The notes under the pieces were generated by a model that saw only the letters and a program-made list of their open reading frames with translations, ran no database searches and was not told the DNA's origin. A stretch of 60,593 nucleotides of DNA, counting the filler, from Diploschistes diacapsis (Eukaryota): assembly GCA_023645945.1 (NCBI GenBank). It is 7 parts of 7 records of this genome, joined end to end, with 100 filler letters (N's around TTAATTAATTAA, not from the genome) between each part and the next. Parts side by side here need not be neighbours in the genome. Positions count along the whole stretch, not along the records: positions 52,043 to 60,593 come from JALAIB010001132.1; 6 more parts are not named here. One strand, written 5' to 3'. Shown in pieces: positions 30,729 through 59,203 of the stretch. Both the position numbers and the translations under genes were made by a program. Each line of letters starts with the position of its first letter. The first letter of the stretch is position 1.

Positions 30729-33700
30729 ATGGGGCTGAAAGGCTTTCGTCTTGCGTTCCACTCGCTTCTGCTCTCTCCACTCGTATGTCATTTGCTTTGA
30801 CAGTCCCAAGGAATCTTGTAATGCTGATGATGGTAGGCTGTCGTAGCGCAGAGCAATTTAATAACACCTACCGGTTTACCCGGAAAATGGGTTTATACAA
30901 ACTGCTACACGTATGTCTCTAGCACAATATTCCTTGGCTACTCGGTCTGATATTCTATGAAGTGATAGCGTATCCTCCCGGACGCTCCAGGGCGCGGCCT
31001 ATACAGATGGCAGTGGCATGACCGCCGAGTCTTGCGTCAATTATTGCAACAAACTGGGCTACGGGTATGCGGGAACCGAGTATGCATCCGAGTGCTGTAA
31101 GTTGATCTCATCTACCTTGCATCGAAAAAGCTTATCCTGCCGTCTTTCGCCATCGGCATACACGGGAGACCTCCCTTGGGTGAGACTTTTTTCTGACAAC
31201 ATTCTTAGACTGTGGCAATGTCTTTACTCAAGGAACAATAGTCGACTACGGCAATGGCTGCAATATGGCTTGCGCGGGGAACTCGTCGGAAGTTTGTGGT
31301 GGAAGTAACCGTTTGACCGTCTTCTACAATGGTCTTGGAGGCATCTCAACGAACCCTGGCCCATCCGGTTGGGGCTCGCTCGGATGCTACAATGATTCAG
31401 GCGCCGCTCGGACGTTGACTACTGGCATGGAGGTCACTGGCGGTGCATCCGCCATGACCGTCGCGTTGTGCACGTCTGCCTGTAAACAGGCCGGACACTC
31501 TCTGGCCGGTGTCGAGCATGCTGGCGAATGCTATTGCGGTAAGGCATTCTCCAATGGAGGAGGCCCGGCACCGGACGGCACCAGTGGCTGCAATATGCCA
31601 TGCGCCGGCAATGCTTCCGAATTCTGTGGCGGCCCAAACAGACTAGATGTATACCAACTAGGTGCAACGGTTGGCGCTGTCCCAAAACTCTCTCCAACCA
31701 CTGCCGGTTCTGGCGGAAGCTCTCCGGTCAATACCGCGACAACCATTGGCGCGAACCAAAAGCCCAGCCCTGCATCGGACGGGCCCGGGACTATCACGAC
31801 TTCAACTACTGCCGGATTGACTATGGTTGCCGGTTCTGCAGCCACTGCGCTACCTCCGGGCTGGACGTCCAAGGGATGCTGGGTCGACAGCGTAAACGGA
31901 AGAATTCTTCCCACCCAGGCGCCATCCGACAACACCATGACCACGGAAAGCTGTGTTGCATCCTGTATAGCAAACGGGTTCAGCGTCGCAGGAACCGAGT
32001 ACGGCGCCCAATGCTTCTGCGGCAATGAAATCATCGAGGGGGGAACGCTGGATACGGCAAACCCCAACGGCTGCAATATGGCTTGTGCAGGAGACGCCAA
32101 TGAGATTTGCGGCGGACCCAATAGAATGGACATTTACAGCAACATCACCGGCAGTGTCCCCGTTATTCCACCTCCTGTCACTCAAGAGACCGGTCTGCCA
32201 GGGAACTGGCAATACGTTGGTTGTCTTACTGACAATGCTGCTGGTACCCGCACCTTCCCATGGCAGCTCGTTCTGCCCATGAACAACTCCGCTCAAAACT
32301 GTCTCAGCCTTTGCTCGAATTACGGCTACGGAAGAGGAGGAATGGAATACGGGGACGAGTGCTATTGTGGAGATCTGTCCGACGTTCAGACGAACCAGGC
32401 AACTCTTGCACCCGACACTGACTGCAACATGGTGTGCTCCGGAAACGCATCATACTTCTGCGGTGCGGGCAACAGAATCAGCTACTACGAGTGGAACGGG
32501 AGTGGCTTGCCCCAATGGAACTACGCGTCCGGCACGGCTGCCGGTCAGTATCAGTTCTTGATCGGTGGGCCCATCATCCCATTGATCGCCACTGCCGGAA
32601 TCAACGGTAAGGTTGTTTTCGTTGAGAAGTTTGGCACGGAGCCCGCGGCGAATTCGACCGGCACCTACGAGCTTGACCTTAGCCAGATAAACGATTATAG
32701 CGCAGCTTTCCGCCCATTACACGTCAAGACCGATGTCTTCTGCTCTGCAGGTCTGACGCTGCCCGACAAGGTTGGCCGGCAGATCAACGTCGGGGGCTGG
32801 TCCGTGAACTCTCTATACGGAATCAGACTCTACATCCCATCCGGCAAACCAGGCGCCGCGGGCACCACTGATTGGCAAGAAAACTATCAAGAACTCGCCC
32901 TTCAGAACGGTCGCTGGTATCCAAGCGCCATGATCCTGACCAACGGCTCCATTCTCGTCGTGGGAGGCGAAAACGGTTCCAACGGCCCTCCTGTACCCAC
33001 CCTCGAGATCCTGCCCAAGCCCGCTGGCGGCACGACCGTCTACCTCGAATTCCTCAACCGTACCGACCCCTACAACCTCTACCCCTTCCTCCACGTCCTA
33101 CCGAGTAGCGGCAACGTTTTCATTGGCTACTACAACGAAGCCCGCATCCTCAACAGCCAGACCTTTGATACCGTCAAAACCCTCCCCAACATCCCTGGCC
33201 AGGTAAATAACAATGCTTCCGGCCGCACCTACCCATTCGAAGGCAGTTCGGTCCTCATGCCCCAGAAAGCACCCTACACGGATCCCATAACAATCATGAT
33301 CTGCGGCGGTTCCAACCCGGGCCTTGCCATCGGCATAGACAACTGCGTTTCCATCCAGCCCGAGGCCGCAAACCCCACCTGGGCCCTCGAGCGCATGCCT
33401 TCGGGACGTGTGATGTCTTGCATGGTCGCTCTCCCGGACGGGACCTACCTCATCAACAACGGCGCCTTCCTTGGCACTGCTGGCTTTGGCCTCGGCACGG
33501 GCCCTAACCTCAACGCCGTCCTCTACGACCCCAGCAGGCCCTTTAACCAGCGCATGACCGTCATGGCCAACACGACCGTTGCCCGCCTGTACCACTCCGA
33601 ATCCATCCTTCTCGATGACGGTCGCGTGTTGGTGTCCGGCTCGGATCCCGAGGACCCGCGCTACCCCCAGGAATACCGCATCGAAGTCTTTATCCCGCCC

Positions 33701-34108
33701 TACCTCCTTTCCGGCCGGCCGCGCCCGAGCTACACCATCTCAGAGGCGAACCGTGACTGGTCGTACGGGCAGAGCTACACTATCACCAACGTCGCAACGC
33801 CCAACGGCGGACCCGCCTCGGTAACCCTCCTTGGCGCTGTCTCATCGACGCACGGAAATAGCATGGGGCAGAGGACTATCATGCCCGCTGTTTCCTGCTC
33901 CGGCACGACCTGTACGATCACGGCGCCACCCAACGTCAACGTCGCGCCCGCCGGTTGGTTCCAGCTGTGGGTGCTCGACAACGGCATCCCTAGCAACGCC
34001 TCCTGGGTCCGCATCGGCGGCGATCCGGGCAACCTAGGGTCTTGGCCGAGTGGATTCTCTGACTTTACGGCTCCGGGCGAGGGAGCGGTGAGTGGTTACG
34101 TGCAATAG
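30729..34108 (+). CDS. WSC-domain copper radical oxidase / glyoxal oxidase (CAZy AA5_1), 4 WSC domains, 4 exons
   Basis: Signal peptide; four WSC repeats (GC..D...R...MT...C...C...G.EY..ECYCG...CNM.C.G....CGG.NR); catalytic residues in VFCSAG (Cys), NLYPF (Tyr), RLYHS (Tyr-His) and STHG (His); C-terminal Ig-like domain (APAGWFQLWVL..GIPS). Confidence 0.93.
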
Positions 34109-52405: not shown

Positions 52406-53527
52406 CTACGCTGTTCTGGGGTACCGCATTATTTTCCGGATCAATTGTATGCTTGGATCCCTGCCCAAGAGCCACCCCACGCCCTTCGCCGCATCGTCTA
52501 AAAACTTCCTGGAGATATCTAATTGTGGCAATTCCGTCCAGAAACAATGCGGAGCGCCCTCATACCCTGCAAACCGAGTTTCCACGCCGTGATCCGCCAA
52601 TGCGCGTGCCCAGATAATGCCATCGTCCCTGATTACGTCTCCTCCACAGACCTGGACGAAAGTCTGTGGAAGCCCTCGGAATGGGTTTGCAGCGTTGAAT
52701 TGTGACCACGGCGGAGACTTCCAGTCAGGGTTGTAAAATCCGAGCAAAGTCTTCGAAAGATCAGCGTTCAGGACGAGTGCGTTGGCATTGTCTTTCCAGG
52801 AGTGAACCATCTCTTTGTATTTAGGGGACAGTGAGAACGCAGAGGTCTTCTTGCAAGAAAATTGGCACTTGAGCCCAAAGACCAGTCAGAGGAGGTTGCA
52901 GGTTCTCGAGCCTGGCAAGCTCCGCCAGGACACCTACGAAGTTTCCGCCTGCGGAGCGGCCGGACAGAATGAATCCTTTCTCTGGACTAGCCCCTAGACT
53001 TTGAGCATGCGATGCAGTCCACTCGAGCGTATCCCAGCATTCATTAGGCCCTTTTAGGAAGGGGTTCTCGGGCGCCATGCAATGGGTCGGACAAACCACT
53101 ACTGCGTCGAACAAGCGAGCTAAGCCCCGAGCAAAGGGAGCCATGGAGATGGTACTTCCACCGGAGAATCCACCTCCGTGATAATAAATAATAAGAGGAC
53201 TGTGCCCGCTTCGTTCCACGCATCTCGTGACCCGAGAGGATGGTGGTGTCCATCGCGCATCGAAACCTGACACTCAAGTTCTCCAGATCAGGCGACAAAG
53301 GCTCCAAAGACTCGTACACTGCTCTTTCCGCCTCTTCGGTATGGCGTCGGAGCTTTATGTGGTCTATCGGATGTGGAATCCCCTGCGCCCTGTTCGCCTG
53401 TTGAAACTGTAATGATGAGGTTGAGAGCCGGGCCTGATCGACAGTTGCTCACCTCTGCTAATTGTGGACTAGGCGTGGACAAGTGTTGAATGCTAGCGGT
53501 GGATAGGCTGGAAATTTTAATGATCAT
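52406..53527 (-). pseudogene. Alpha/beta hydrolase (HSL / abhydrolase_3 family) pseudogene
   Basis: PLIIYYHGGGF, GRSAGG, DVIRDDG and PHCFW motifs are present. There are frameshifts around the MRDG motif (~53225-53265) and an extra C at GTCCCCTAA (~52821-52829) that gives a premature stop. Confidence 0.85.
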
Positions 53528-54262: not shown

Positions 54263-55224
54263 ATGTCCCACTCATCGAGAGTCTGGCTCATCACTGGCGC
54301 TTCCGGCGGCCTCGGGGAGATGTTGGCTCTCAAGGCCATCTCCGCTGGCGACAAGGTGATCGCGGCCTCACGCTCTCTGAGCCGCCTGGATGTAATCAAG
54401 TGCAAAGGCGCCGCTGTGCTAGCGTTGGACCCGAACAAGCCTCTAGCAGAGATCAAAGCAGCCATGGAGGAGGCGATAAAGATGTACGGCTCCATAGACA
54501 TTGTGGTCAATAACGCCGGATAGGTACACACTGGCACGCTCGAGGAAACTACGTGAGCCTTACCTTTGCACCTTGCCTGCGTTTGCAGAAATTGCAGTCT
54601 AGTTTGGATTAGCCATGATGACCTCTGACTTTTGATATTAGCCCTGAAGAAACCCAAAACCAGTTCCAAGCCAATGTCTTCGGTCCTCTCAACGTTTTCC
54701 GCGCCATCCTGCCGCATAGGCGCGCCAAGCGCTCCGGCACCCTCGTCACCATTGGCAGCATGGCAGCCTGGACCAGGTTTCCTAGCTGTAACCTGTACGA
54801 CGCCAGCAAAGCTGCTGTACAAATGATCAGTCTGGGGTTCGACAGCGAAGTGTCCGGGTTTGGGATCAAGACATGCCTCGTGGAACCTGGGTACTTCCGA
54901 ACCGAACTTTTAGCACCTTCTTCAAACTTGCAGCAAACCGACAAGATGGCGCGTATTTCAGAATATACGGAAATGAACAAAATGGCTGAACAAGCCCTTG
55001 GCGGCGCTCACCAAAACCAGGCCGGTGGCCCCGTGAAGGGTGCAGAGATCATGTATGATGTATTCACAAGCTCGGGCGTCGCGAAGGGAAAACATGTGCC
55101 CAGATTCCTGCCGCTGGGCAATGATGCTGTGCAGGAAGTCATCAAGTATGCGCAGGAGGCGATTGATGACTGTAAGGAATGGTCTGAGATTGCTTCAATG
55201 ACCGCTTATGCAAAAGCTTCGTAA
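54263..55224 (+). pseudogene. Short-chain dehydrogenase/reductase with an in-frame premature stop
   Basis: VWLITGASGGLG...IDIVVNNAG-TAG(54521-54523)-VHTGTLEETT/intron/PEETQNQFQANVFGPLNVFRAILP...YDASKAA...VEPGYFRT. Confidence 0.85.
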
Positions 55225-55730
55225 AGTTTCGAGAGAATGAATGGCATGCAGCTCATTGTAAGCACATTTGAAACGTAAATTGAAAAGTTTATGCTACATA
55301 CAGTCCAGCCGGAATATTGCAGGCAAATGAGCTTTATGACTTCAAGGCCCCGATTATCTCCTGTTCGCATAGCAGCAGCAGCGACTGACTCGTCCACTAC
55401 GGAGTTGTGGAGTTTATCATTACCTTAGAAACAACAATGTAGGGGAAGGGACACAGTATTCTGAGAAATATGGGTGACAATGATCTAAACCCTTTAAAGT
55501 TTAGCCTATCGAATTACAGCCCTACTATTCGCATATTTCCATTTAACGAGTCAAATGATGGGAAAGTTAAGAGTCATGATGAGCAGGGCAGTCGTTCACG
55601 ATACAGGAGAGGATATTGACTTTGGCAAACAGATTTCATCCAGCCAGTGTGCCGGCATTAGCCTTGGTATCTTATATTGGGTATAGCATCATTCGGCCAT
55701 TTGTTCAACCTCAGTCATGTAGACCATAGC

Positions 55731-57259
55731 CTAGTAATTACTTTGATCACCACCATAGTCGCCTTGACCGCCCTGGTTAGCGTACTGGTCGGAGCTGCCG
55801 AAGCCTGCCTGCTCGCGCTTCTCGCTACCCTTCTGCTCAAGCTTCTCGTTCTTTAACATGCCGCCAACTTTCTCCATTAACTTACCGGCCGTTGAGTCTG
55901 AATATGACGTTAGGCTTTGGCGAAAGCGCTATCGCACTCAGAGCTTACCTCCACCAGAGCCGCCACTGCTGCCACCCATGCCGCCTTGGCCGCCGGACTA
56001 GAGCAGCGTCAGAATGATCAAGATACTACAGTGCCAAGCTTGCGCTCACTCCACCGTAGGTGTCACCTTGACCGGAAGACTGGAATAGCTGTGAGCTGTG
56101 GTCGACTAATGATGCGAAAGCCCGGTGACTTACGCTATAGCTATCCCCGCCCAAACCAGAGCCCATGTTGCCGGACTTGGCTAAGTCAGCAAAACGCAGT
56201 CTTGCCGATAACATATGGTCCTTACACTGTAGTTGTCGCCTCCAAAGCCGCCGCCAGTGTTGCCAGACTTATGCCAAGTTAGTAGAAGCCGTTATTGTGG
56301 ACGTATGAGCCCAAGTACGCTGTAGGTATCACTCCCCAGACCACCAGCAGTGCTGCCACCTCCCATGCCGCCGCCAGTGTTGCCAGACTTGTGTAGGGTT
56401 AGTATAAGCCGTTCTGGTTGGGTATGAGCCCTCACGCTGTAGTTGTCACCTCCTTGGCCACCAGTAGTGCTGCCGGACTAGAAGCGGTCAGTGAATAGCG
56501 CGATGCGAGTTTCGCTACTTTCCATACACCATAGCCGCCGCTAGTGTTCCCAGACTGTCAGCCGTCAGTCAAGACACGGATGCGATAGTTCAAAGAGCCT
56601 TACGCCAAAGCTATCGCCTCCTAGACCCTGGTTGCCGGAAGACTGTTTCTTGTCAGCTGTCTTCATACGCGCAGTGGCATGTTCGCCTTACACCAAAGTT
56701 GTCACCACCCATTCTACCTGACGACTGTACAGAACGTTGGTCAATTGTCCTTTCGATTAGGGTAGGAGGCAGCATACCCCGAGGCTATCACCTCCTAGAC
56801 CCTGGTTGCCGGAGGACTGCCAATCGTCAGCTGTATCCATTCACGTGGTAGCATGTTCGCCTTACACCAAAGTTGTCACCACCCATTCCGCCTGTCGACT
56901 GTACGGAAAACTTGTCAATCATCCTTCGGGCCAGGCCAAGGAGGAACATACACCGAAGTTGTCGCCTTTTCCACCAATTCCGCCCGATGACTACAGAAAC
57001 ATCGGCCATGGACGTCACGACACACTTCAAACAACATACGCCCAGGTTTCCGCCTTGTCCACCCATCCCGCCGGATGACTGGGAAACCGTTAGCAGCGGG
57101 GCAGTTTGCATGAGGGGCGACTGCACTCACCCCAAAACTGTCATCTCCGTAGCCTCCACCCCCCTATTATTCTTATGTCAGTTCCTCATGCTCATGGTGG
57201 GGCGCTTTTGCGAGTGAGGGGTAGAGGCTCACGGTGTTGTTGTCGTCGTAATTGGACAT
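55731..57259 (-). CDS. 16-exon Gly/Ser-rich hydrophilin-like protein (249 aa) built from symmetric micro-exons
   Basis: Exons: 57233-57259, 57131-57163, 57040-57078, 56952-56990, 56866-56898, 56778-56816, 56692-56724, 56604-56642, 56528-56554, 56436-56477, 56319-56387, 56226-56267, 56134-56175, 56050-56079, 55949-55997, 55731-55897 (750 nt in total). All 15 introns are GT-AG, 48-69 nt. C-terminal DSTAGKLMEKVGGMLKNEKLEQKGSEKREQAG. Confidence 0.9.
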
Positions 57260-57374
57260 GTTTCGACGACTAATCTCAATTCTGCTGGAGTGGATTCTAG
57301 ATTTTGGGGGATGTTATAGAATATGTTATGAGAAAGGGAGCTTCTATGCACAAATGGTGGGGTGCGTTTGTGGC

Positions 57375-57380
57375 TTTATA
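57375..57380 (-). promoter_or_regulatory. Candidate TATA box of the micro-exon gene
   Basis: TATAAA on the minus strand about 115 nt upstream of ATG 57259. Confidence 0.4.
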
Positions 57381-58077
57381 GCTTGGTGGACAAACTTGGA
57401 AGCTCCCGTTCCCGCAAGTGAAACTGTCGTCATCTGGCTCATCGCAATTCACTGTTGGCTCCTGAAACATTGAACGTCGCTTGCCTTGGTTTTTGCCTGC
57501 TTCTGGAGCTACAAGACGGCCAGACGCGGGTGAGCGCACTGCAACCCGATCACCGATTTGGGGGTTCTTAGATGAGGTGCTGGCGTCTGCACCTCCCATG
57601 GAATGGGCCAATGCTGCAGCAAGATACACGCAGCGTGCCAGAGTAGGCCCACAACTGGCAGCACACAAAAAGTTTCCCCGCTCTAGAGCCAGCCAGCCCA
57701 CATGTGCTTCGGAATGCCCAGCATGCAAGAGGTTTCCCGCAAGGCAAGGCGGATGGGGATGATCTGCACTATGATCTCCGTACTTCAGATCGATAGTAAG
57801 AAAATACGATAACACAGAGGTAACTGTGTCCCTAATAGTGCAAGTACCTGACATTGATGTGAAGGGTTTTCCAGCTTCTGGCTAGAAATGACGCAATTTG
57901 ATCTTGTAGGTCTGGCTTTCGGGCTCCCTGAAGCCAATTGGTCGATTCGAACGAGGCACGCCCAGCAAGCAAAGCAGCAACTCAGAATTTGCCCAAGTCA
58001 TGTGGATCGTTGTGCCCTTCGAAGCAAAGAAGTAGATGCACACTCGGGCCCTCTATTGCGCCGATCGCGGGCAACCT

Positions 58078-59203
58078 CTATTTTACGTACTTGCTCTACG
58101 CTATTGCTTAGCTTGCTGTACGCTGGCGAAAACAATGTCTCAGTAACTGGAACTTACCATGAATCTCTTGTGAAAGTCAGATCGAAGAAGATCCTGTGGT
58201 ACACGTTAACTTGGTCTATTACCTCGGAATAGATCGTGCTGCTCGCATACATTCACAAACTCCTTTTTGCGCTTGTCTTCCGTTCCACGAGCTTGGTTCT
58301 TGAAGACCACATCATCGTCCCACCTAGAGAGCGTTGGTCCCGCCAAACACATACCATTCGCTTCCTACTCACCGCCGCTTCACATTGTAGTCCCGTGTGG
58401 GGTTCAGTAGAGGGTTTCCCACAGCAATGTCCTTTTCCCGCTTCTCTTGCTCCTCAGCCACACGCTCTCTCTCCTGCATGTGATCATTAGCAAGCATTCG
58501 CCAGGAAAGGTTGCGGAGTATTGCTTGCCTCGCGCTCACGTTGCTCTGCTCGCTCCTGCTTGATCTTCTCGAGTTCTCTCATTAACTCCGCCGTCTCATC
58601 TTCCTCATCACTAATACAATAAGCACAAGCAGCATGCTCGAGAAAACCTAGCCCATACCTATCTTCATCGCTACTTTCGTCCTCCAATCCATCCGAGTCC
58701 GCATCAATGTCTCGGGTCTCCTCCAGTATTCGCCTTCTTTTAGCATCCACATCCTCATTTTCATCGGTTTGCACATCTCCTGGGCCTTCAAGCCGTCTCT
58801 TAGAGCTCACACTATCTTGGGGGGCTGCTTCATCGGTGTTTAGATGCGGTCCCTTGATCTTGGAAAGGTGCGCTGCTTCCGCGTGAAGGAGTTGCGCCCG
58901 TAAATCCCTCTTCTGCGTCTCGGCTGCGTTGCCCTGACCCGGTCGTCTATCTGATTTAGCCGAAGATTACAGATCTCAACTCGTGAGCCTTACCGAGTCT
59001 TCAATACCGTATGTGCAGGCAGTAGTCGCTGGTGATAGGCTGGGCCTCGCTGTGCTTCCTTGCCACGAGCCTATGCCTGACATTAAATATTTGTGCGGAG
59101 ACATGAATATGAAGCATCCTCACCGGATCGAATGTGGGTCTATGGGCTTTGCATGATCAGTATAGTTTGACACATATCTTCACCAAGGCCTACCAGTCGT
59201 CAT
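58078..59203 (-). CDS. CWC15: Pre-mRNA splicing factor CWC15 (multi-exon)
   Basis: MTTA/HRPTFDP/ARGKEAQRGPAYHQRLLPAHTVLKTR...DADSD...EDETAELMRELEKIKQER...GNPLLN...VKRR/WDDDVVFKNQAR...FVN/DLLRSDFHKRFM/SKYVK*. Confidence 0.95.

Follow-up and report, generated by a model that had tools for sequence, protein, structure and literature searches.

A glycine-rich gene of sixteen exons in Diploschistes diacapsis whose exon array probably grew by duplication of exon-intron cassettes

The minus strand of a 60.6-kb stretch of DNA from Diploschistes diacapsis (assembly GCA_023645945.1; 60,593 nt, hereafter the window, along whose full length all coordinates are counted) carries, between positions 57259 and 55731, a glycine-rich gene that is divided into 16 exons, most of them very short. 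The sequence evidence identifies it as a genuine gene of a filamentous ascomycete with a predicted product of 249 residues, and as a divergent member of a protein family known chiefly from ascomycetes that form lichens or inhabit rock. We consider it probable that this gene encodes a disordered protein and that its exon array has grown by the duplication of cassettes in which an exon is copied together with its intron.

Results

Gene model and splicing signals

The original prediction for this stretch had described a gene concealed by an incoherent track of open reading frames (ORFs), with about one Gly/Ser module per exon. Stop-to-stop frames in the region are indeed fragments only, and both peptide mapping and an independent parser recover the predicted exons, their GT and AG borders and the module that each exon carries: all 15 predicted peptides were located in order on the minus strand, with AG before and GT after each exon. 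Together with the last exon (55897-55731), the 16 joined exons amount to 750 nt, or 249 codons and a TAG, with 0 internal stops. The 14 consecutive phase-0 introns that had been proposed were recovered as introns 1-14, and intron 15 is in phase 1, cutting an Asp codon as G|AC. Exons 2-14 do have lengths of 27-69 nt that are all multiples of three (Table 1), and TCN is the first codon in 13/13 of exons 3-15, as claimed. Two details of the model were corrected, in that exon 15 measures 49 nt, which is not a multiple of three, and the product has 249 residues.

All 15 introns have GT-AG ends and sizes of 48-69 nt. A CTRAC motif lies 14-18 nt before the 3' end in 11 of the 15, and the donors follow GTRNG in 14, the sole exception being intron 11 with GTACTT. 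Five of the 15 intron lengths are multiples of three, and among those five only introns 10 and 13 are without an in-frame stop. The intron density of this Gly-rich gene comes to about 20 per kb of coding sequence. The third codon position is 71% C+T, positions 1 and 2 are G-rich, and the GC content is 58% in exons and 50% in introns.

The same model was reached by a splice parser made without use of the originally predicted peptides. The parser applies dynamic programming, weighs codons according to the family's amino-acid composition, allows GT..AG introns of 40-150 nt and is anchored at the stop codon. Given the 1600 nt upstream of the stop codon, it returned the identical 15 introns with a score of 157 bits. 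As controls, 300 random stop codons elsewhere in the window gave 260 parses (mean -2.2, maximum 16.9 bits) and 100 shuffles of the gene region gave 86 parses (maximum 7.2 bits). Longer upstream input leads the parser to add two spurious 5' exons; the ATG at 57259 was taken as the start, since the N-terminus MS.YDD is conserved among relatives, the MSNYDD-type motif being present also in the protein P0043 and in the loci L001, L005 and L023 described below. On the plus strand opposite the gene there are antisense low-complexity frames only, with Pfam matches in 0 of 4, and no Rfam match was obtained within 55000-58500.

Similarity among introns and cassettes

The introns of the gene resemble one another. 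Pairwise identity reaches 76% for introns 5 and 7, 70% for 4 and 6, 71% for 10 and 11 and 71% for 5 and 8, against a shuffle null of 51 +/- 5% with a maximum of 64%, and introns 4-8, 10 and 11 all find their best partner inside the gene, at 70-76%. Partner exons are closer than the introns, with 91% identity for exons 5 and 7 and 87% for exons 6 and 8. A repeat search further detected a tandem duplication of a 174-nt cassette that spans two exons and two introns (Table 1), and a 65-nt repeat, 82% identical, extends from the 3' end of an intron into the start of the following exon. Copies of the 15 introns gave 17 matches inside the gene and 0 elsewhere in the 60.6-kb window. Tandem Repeats Finder reports no array inside the gene, where copies are less than about 80% alike and exon lengths are unequal; its sole row is a 12-nt repeat at 57311-57334, upstream of the ATG.

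The similarity of the introns and the 174-nt cassette repeat therefore point to an array that grew by copying exon-intron cassettes. The unit of tandem expansion would be an exon with its intron, or sometimes two exons with two introns, and each new copy would bring its own splice sites. Surviving copies would be those that combine an exon of a multiple of three with a phase-0 intron, the others losing the frame. With only frame-preserving cassettes surviving, symmetric exons would arise without any selection for skipping, and the micro-exon layout would be a by-product of the growth of the repeat array.

Positional orthologues

Metagenome contigs scanned with the C-terminal alignment of the family yielded 45 loci, all of which were parsed with the same splice parser; the intron counts given for relatives are parser predictions. 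Two of the loci, L010 and L020, have fewer than 20 nt upstream and are uninformative. In the window, the Gly-rich gene is immediately preceded, on its own strand, by an ORF for Cwc15 (58487-58966, minus strand; PF04889, E 1.1e-20). The cwc15 gene occupies this upstream, same-strand position in 9 of the 45 loci (L001-3, L005, L012/13, L038, L031 and L034), which are therefore regarded as positional orthologues on account of their shared place downstream of cwc15. In L008-L010, cwc15 is found downstream and in opposite orientation. P0101, a Venturia nashicola protein named 'pre-mrna-splicing factor cwc15', matches the Gly-rich family over its C-terminal portion and is most likely a fusion of the cwc15 and Gly-rich gene models.

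The architecture recurs in the relatives. L001-3, L005, L012/13, L038 and L023 each have 4-7 consecutive phase-0 introns placed exactly at ..[YF]G|S.. module borders, with predicted intron totals of 8, 8, 6, 5 and 4, respectively. The positional orthologues that share this plan are predicted to have 5-8 introns, compared with 15 in the window gene; in the relatives the 3' modules are joined in one longer exon, whereas the window gene has nearly one exon per module. The phase-1 intron at GGD|ST.GK is predicted in L001-3, L005, L007, L012/13 and L038, but not in L023. Homology among the introns, and the sharing of the architecture by positional orthologues, can be taken as established at the level of sequence comparison.

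Cassette duplication is also seen in the positional orthologue L001, where the adjacent introns 3 and 4, of 51 nt each, show 100% identity and their exons come close to it; this pair is, on its sequence, a very recent exon-intron cassette duplication. Between species, the best intron match of the window gene reaches at most 69% (L001, L003, L005, L012, L023 and L038). The exons of L001 and L003 are 98.1% identical and their introns 95.6%, with 13 of the 15 exon mismatches at codon position 3, and between L001 and L038 the values fall to 81% for exons and 55% for introns. The gene models in these relatives are under coding constraint.

At least two introns are predicted in 17/17 loci that have 3 kb of upstream flank. 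Twelve full-length loci have zero predicted introns (L004, L011, L015, L021, L022, L026, L027, L028, L032, L036, L039 and L040), and all 12 are contigs of 1.0-1.5 kb with mRNA-like flanks; the 3' end of L032 is a run of nine A, and the 5' end of L036 is an adapter-like 13-mer. These contigs may be cDNA or transcript assemblies and are not taken as evidence for intron-less genes. A search for pairs of cDNA and genomic versions among the 45 loci found none at >=85% identity over >=150 nt. L042 and L043, both short contigs of mRNA-like character from a distant subfamily, are 99.7% identical over 878 nt and have predicted products of 371 and 345 residues, the 26-residue difference falling in the repeat region; it could be due to alleles of different repeat number, to assembly or to splice isoforms.

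Protein product and family

The product contains 93 Gly (37%), 41 Ser (16%), 18 Asn and 18 Asp among its 249 residues, has an isoelectric point of 4.05 and carries 18 aromatic residues distributed along its whole length. About 13 short Gly/Ser modules each close with an Asp-x-aromatic/Leu-Gly/Ser unit; D-x-[FYL]-[GS] occurs 11 times. Going by this composition, the product should be intrinsically disordered. Behind the modules follow a conserved C-terminal helix motif, GKLMEK...KG.EKREQAG, and a short Gly/Tyr tail. For the C-terminal piece of 54 residues, an AlphaFold2 model built on an alignment of 20 such pieces predicts one helix at residues 2-33, with a predicted local distance difference test score (pLDDT) of about 80, and a tail of low confidence. 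In the C-terminal alignment (A1), K9, G11, K22, G23, K26 and R27 are invariant.

The link drawn in the original prediction between the GKLMEK tail and small Gly-rich fungal proteins proved sound, as the tail does mark a fungal family. The search with the last exon returned 48 representative proteins at E<=1e-3, and a search with the full-length relative P0043 returned 65 homologues, almost all of them labelled 'hypothetical protein' and hosted mostly by Teloschistales lichen fungi, Aureobasidium, Cryomyces, Recurvomyces, Endocarpon and others. The family signature, D-S-T-x-G-K-[LFI]-M-E-K...K-G-x-x-K-R behind Gly/Ser repeats with a terminal N/D-Y, is present in the window protein. Several of these homologues align with the spliced product from end to end, for example P0051 (residues 1-244, 41% identity; composition correction was off, which makes repeat identities soft), and so does L001 (residues 1-235, 47% identity). 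One P0043 homologue, P0089, bears the name 'Stress protein DDR48' (an automatic UniRef name) and matches the product at 35.7% over 238 residues, again with composition correction off.

Many of the 48 representatives are prokaryote-style mis-calls, in which the last intron is read through or the repeats are in the wrong frame (for example, P0001, P0002, P0003, P0007, P0022 and P0030). A precomputed PF06179 match, carried by many annotated homologues of lichen-fungus assemblies (P0051, P0057-P0061, P0064, P0066, P0067, P0069, P0070 and P0105), is not explained by the Gly-rich family and is probably due to automatic models that run two adjacent genes together.

Membership in the CsbD-like family was considered for the C-terminal helix and dropped. 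The last exon scores 14.2 bits against PF05532, below the cut-off of 40, and homologues score 11.5-15.3 bits in 8 of 10 cases, with no match in the other two; hhalign against E. coli YjbJ gives a probability of 0.8%, and the model has a single helix. Best scores in a protein atlas were 0.76-0.78, under the lead level of 0.9, one cluster (0.77) being automatically named 'putative CsbD-like domain-containing protein'. A profile search of solved structures gave 0 matches at E<=10.

Feature coordinates and neighbouring genes

Features of the gene are listed in Table 1. Its downstream neighbours are a gene for a short-chain dehydrogenase, present with its 3' portion at 54622-55224 on the plus strand and convergent with the Gly-rich gene, and an alpha/beta-hydrolase (Abhydrolase_3) gene, represented by two frames at 52406-53273 on the minus strand. 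Elsewhere in the window, an uninterrupted frame of 974 codons (31184-34108, plus strand) encodes a WSC-domain copper radical (glyoxal) oxidase (PF07250, PF01822, PF09118). The closest relatives of the oxidase are 77-80% identical and the best named ones (e.g. Phylliscum, Xylographa) 52-61%, which therefore suggests a poorly sampled ascomycete lineage.

Table 1 Exons, introns and associated features of the Gly-rich gene
Feature	Coordinates	Strand	Length (nt)	Phase	Remarks
Candidate TATA box, TATAAA	57375..57380	-			Motif scan; first base 121 nt upstream of ATG; putative function
Exon 1	57233..57259	-	27		ATG at 57259; N-terminus MSNYDD kept in relatives
Intron 1	57164..57232	-	69	0	GT-AG; CTGAC 18 nt from 3' end
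Exon 2	57131..57163	-	33
Intron 2	57079..57130	-	52	0
Exon 3	57040..57078	-	39
Intron 3	56991..57039	-	49	0
Exon 4	56952..56990	-	39
Intron 4	56899..56951	-	53	0
Exon 5	56866..56898	-	33
Intron 5	56817..56865	-	49	0
Exon 6	56778..56816	-	39
Intron 6	56725..56777	-	53	0
Exon 7	56692..56724	-	33
Intron 7	56643..56691	-	49	0
Exon 8	56604..56642	-	39
Intron 8	56555..56603	-	49	0
Exon 9	56528..56554	-	27
Intron 9	56478..56527	-	50	0
Exon 10	56436..56477	-	42
Intron 10	56388..56435	-	48	0	AAG acceptor; multiple of three without in-frame stop
Exon 11	56319..56387	-	69		Two modules
Intron 11	56268..56318	-	51	0	Donor GTACTT; AAG acceptor
Exon 12	56226..56267	-	42
Intron 12	56176..56225	-	50	0	AAG acceptor
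Exon 13	56134..56175	-	42
Intron 13	56080..56133	-	54	0	Multiple of three without in-frame stop
Exon 14	56050..56079	-	30
Intron 14	55998..56049	-	52	0
Exon 15	55949..55997	-	49		Last base is first base of Asp codon
Intron 15	55898..55948	-	51	1	At GGD|ST.GK
Exon 16	55731..55897	-	167		Includes TAG (55733-55731); helix motif, then Gly/Tyr-rich tail ending NY
Tandem cassette duplication	56601-56774 vs 56775-56948	-	174		Two exons and two introns; repeat search, 78%, ungapped

Discussion

Growth of the exon array by cassette duplication accounts for the likeness of introns and exons within the gene and for the related plans in positional orthologues. Several observations limit the reach of this explanation or of our wider reading of the gene. 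Only 7 of the 15 introns (4-8, 10 and 11) stand clearly above the null, the others lying at 58-67%, at or near noise, and for these eight we infer older duplications. Gene conversion that homogenises the copies could look like recent duplication, and the two are inseparable on present data. The splice junctions themselves are supported by sequence signals, the open frame and comparison, and the parser has faults in the relatives, over-extending upstream in L017, L030, L031, L033 and L034 and predicting a one-codon exon in L001-3 and L007. As for the kind of protein, the link to DDR48 consists of one database name and the style of the repeats, and the exact tripeptide SYG, found 5-7 times in each of L001, L003, L005, L023 and L038, occurs 0 times in the window protein and in L012. 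Finally, the 840 nt upstream of the ATG contain no stress-response element (STRE; CCCCT/AGGGG), which gives no support for a yeast-type stress promoter; a motif scan of the same 840 nt found no heat-shock element either.

Other origins of the array fit these data far less well. The introns might have spread as mobile introner-like elements inserted at module borders, a mechanism suggested by the similarity of several introns and by the presence of introner-like elements in some Dothideomycetes (PMC4457414, in the text available). We hold this to be very improbable, however, as the similarity runs through exons and introns in register, in both the 174-nt and the 65-nt repeat, paired exons (91% and 87%) surpass their introns (76% and 70%), intron copies are absent from the rest of the window, and every insertion would need the same phase-0 G|S border. 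It is also conceivable that there is no gene, and that a low-complexity, GGN-rich stretch allows a spliced reading by chance, since long open frames can come from low-complexity sequence. This is scarcely credible in view of a parser score so far above the highest control, N- and C-termini that are conserved across many fungi, a divergence between positional orthologues that is biased to the third codon position, and the absence of Pfam and Rfam matches on the opposite strand and in the surrounding region. Expansion of a genuine gene by exon-intron cassettes remains the explanation that we favour.

How the transcript is processed is a separate matter, and we think that the gene is probably spliced constitutively. 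The original prediction had instead proposed a system like the micro-exon genes (MEGs) of schistosomes, in which regulated in-frame skipping of any subset of the 13 symmetric exons would tune the number of aromatic stickers. Exons 2-14 are all multiples of three between phase-0 introns, so that any skip would stay in frame, and by simple arithmetic one skipped exon would merge with its flanking introns into a composite intron of 126-168 nt, a length within fungal intron sizes; given this total for an exon and two introns of about 50 nt, the spliceosome could therefore pair a donor with the next-but-one acceptor. DDR48 homologues are, moreover, among the alternatively spliced stress genes in four fungi, although the type of event is not stated (PMC3925392, Table S7). 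Against this, the symmetry of the exons is already accounted for by cassette duplication, the introns look self-sufficient with their CTRAC branch sites and GTRNG donors, and the long introns and secreted product of MEGs are both lacking. Skipped exons make up 3% of fungal alternative-splicing events, compared with 61% for intron retention (PMC3925392, available text), and low skipping fits intron definition for short introns (PMC3925392; PMC12861292, as far as their available text goes). We therefore rate regulated skipping as quite unlikely; were it true, a condition-dependent ladder of in-frame isoforms with differing numbers of aromatic sticker modules would be the first combinatorial system of the MEG kind in a fungus and would adjust how a disordered, desiccation-related protein condenses or vitrifies.

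The intron load could alternatively be a function in itself, if the yield of productive mRNA depended steeply on splicing capacity and intron retention coupled to decay gated expression, for example during stress or rehydration. Retention is the dominant event in fungi according to the same available text (PMC3925392), 10 of the 15 introns have lengths that would shift the frame and only introns 10 and 13 lack both a frameshift and a stop, and in the window, as in nine loci, the splicing-factor gene cwc15 is the immediate upstream neighbour of the Gly-rich gene. This synteny, however, also occurs in other subfamilies without the cassette array (L031 and L034) and is not tied to intron number, and 5 of 15 introns with a length divisible by three is exactly the chance expectation, with no sign of selection on the outcome of retention. 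A regulatory role of the intron load is in our judgement unlikely.

Among known systems, the generation of MEG variants by exon skipping is documented in schistosomes. Fibrillar collagens with their 54-bp exons and the spider silk gene Flag offer another parallel, combining Gly-rich repeats, a module that equals an exon, phase 0 and duplication of exon with intron; these are animal genes with long introns, whereas the present gene is fungal, with introns of about 50 nt and splicing by intron definition. MEGs have exons of 3-81 bp with symmetric introns of up to 5 kb (bioRxiv 10.1101/2023.06.21.545858, available text). The proposed likeness to them holds for the short symmetric exons (13 of the 14 internal ones, at 27-69 nt), which make up most of the coding sequence, and fails in two other features. 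The introns are short, and by inspection the N-terminus is hydrophilic, with 3 hydrophobic residues in the first 30 and no hydrophobic core, and thus has no signal-peptide-like stretch, unlike the secreted MEG products; there is also no sequence relationship. A literature search for fungal micro-exon genes or Gly-rich repeat genes of the cassette type, which for some articles covered the title or the start of the abstract only, found no example. In Neurospora, tandem duplication is accepted as a source of new introns, with very low reported rates of gain (PMC4317165). In the case described in the available part of that work, one intron was made from a duplicated exon segment, whereas in the window gene whole existing introns would have been copied with their exons.

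The protein is most readily compared with the DDR48 type (DDR48 of S. cerevisiae, C. albicans and Histoplasma, and Cprp of Clitopilus), which likewise has low-complexity repeats rich in Gly, Ser, Asn and Asp, with spaced aromatic residues followed by Gly. DDR48 proteins are defined by SYG repeats, are stress-induced and are present in stress granules or P-bodies (PMC8617954, available text). The unit of the window protein is D-x-[FYL]-[GS] instead, and its conserved C-terminal helix motif is not mentioned in the part of that article available to us. The basidiomycete relative Cprp has three introns (PMC10512284, available text), compared with 15 here. Composition, the distribution of the family and one database name suggest that this is an intrinsically disordered protein of the cytosol that acts in stress or desiccation in the style of DDR48, a general role for which we see about even prospects. 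The spaced Tyr, Phe and Leu residues within Gly/Ser spacers would then serve as weak interaction points, in the manner of stickers and spacers, and structure would be confined to the conserved C-terminal helix.

We regard the gene as a case of moderate interest of rapid intron multiplication, in a DDR48-like, fast-evolving repeat gene whose repeat unit includes an intron and whose intron count is extreme; it is intron-dense in the same window as the uninterrupted 974-codon ORF of the oxidase. It also carries a warning for annotation, as ORF-based or prokaryote-style callers mis-call the family and eukaryotic gene models fuse it to its neighbour (P0101). With 15 introns here and 5-8 predicted in its positional orthologues, the family offers a natural series for the rate at which introns multiply, and perhaps are lost, inside a tandem repeat. 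The concentration of the family in lichen-forming and rock-inhabiting fungi makes its product a reasonable candidate for the biology of desiccation or stress.

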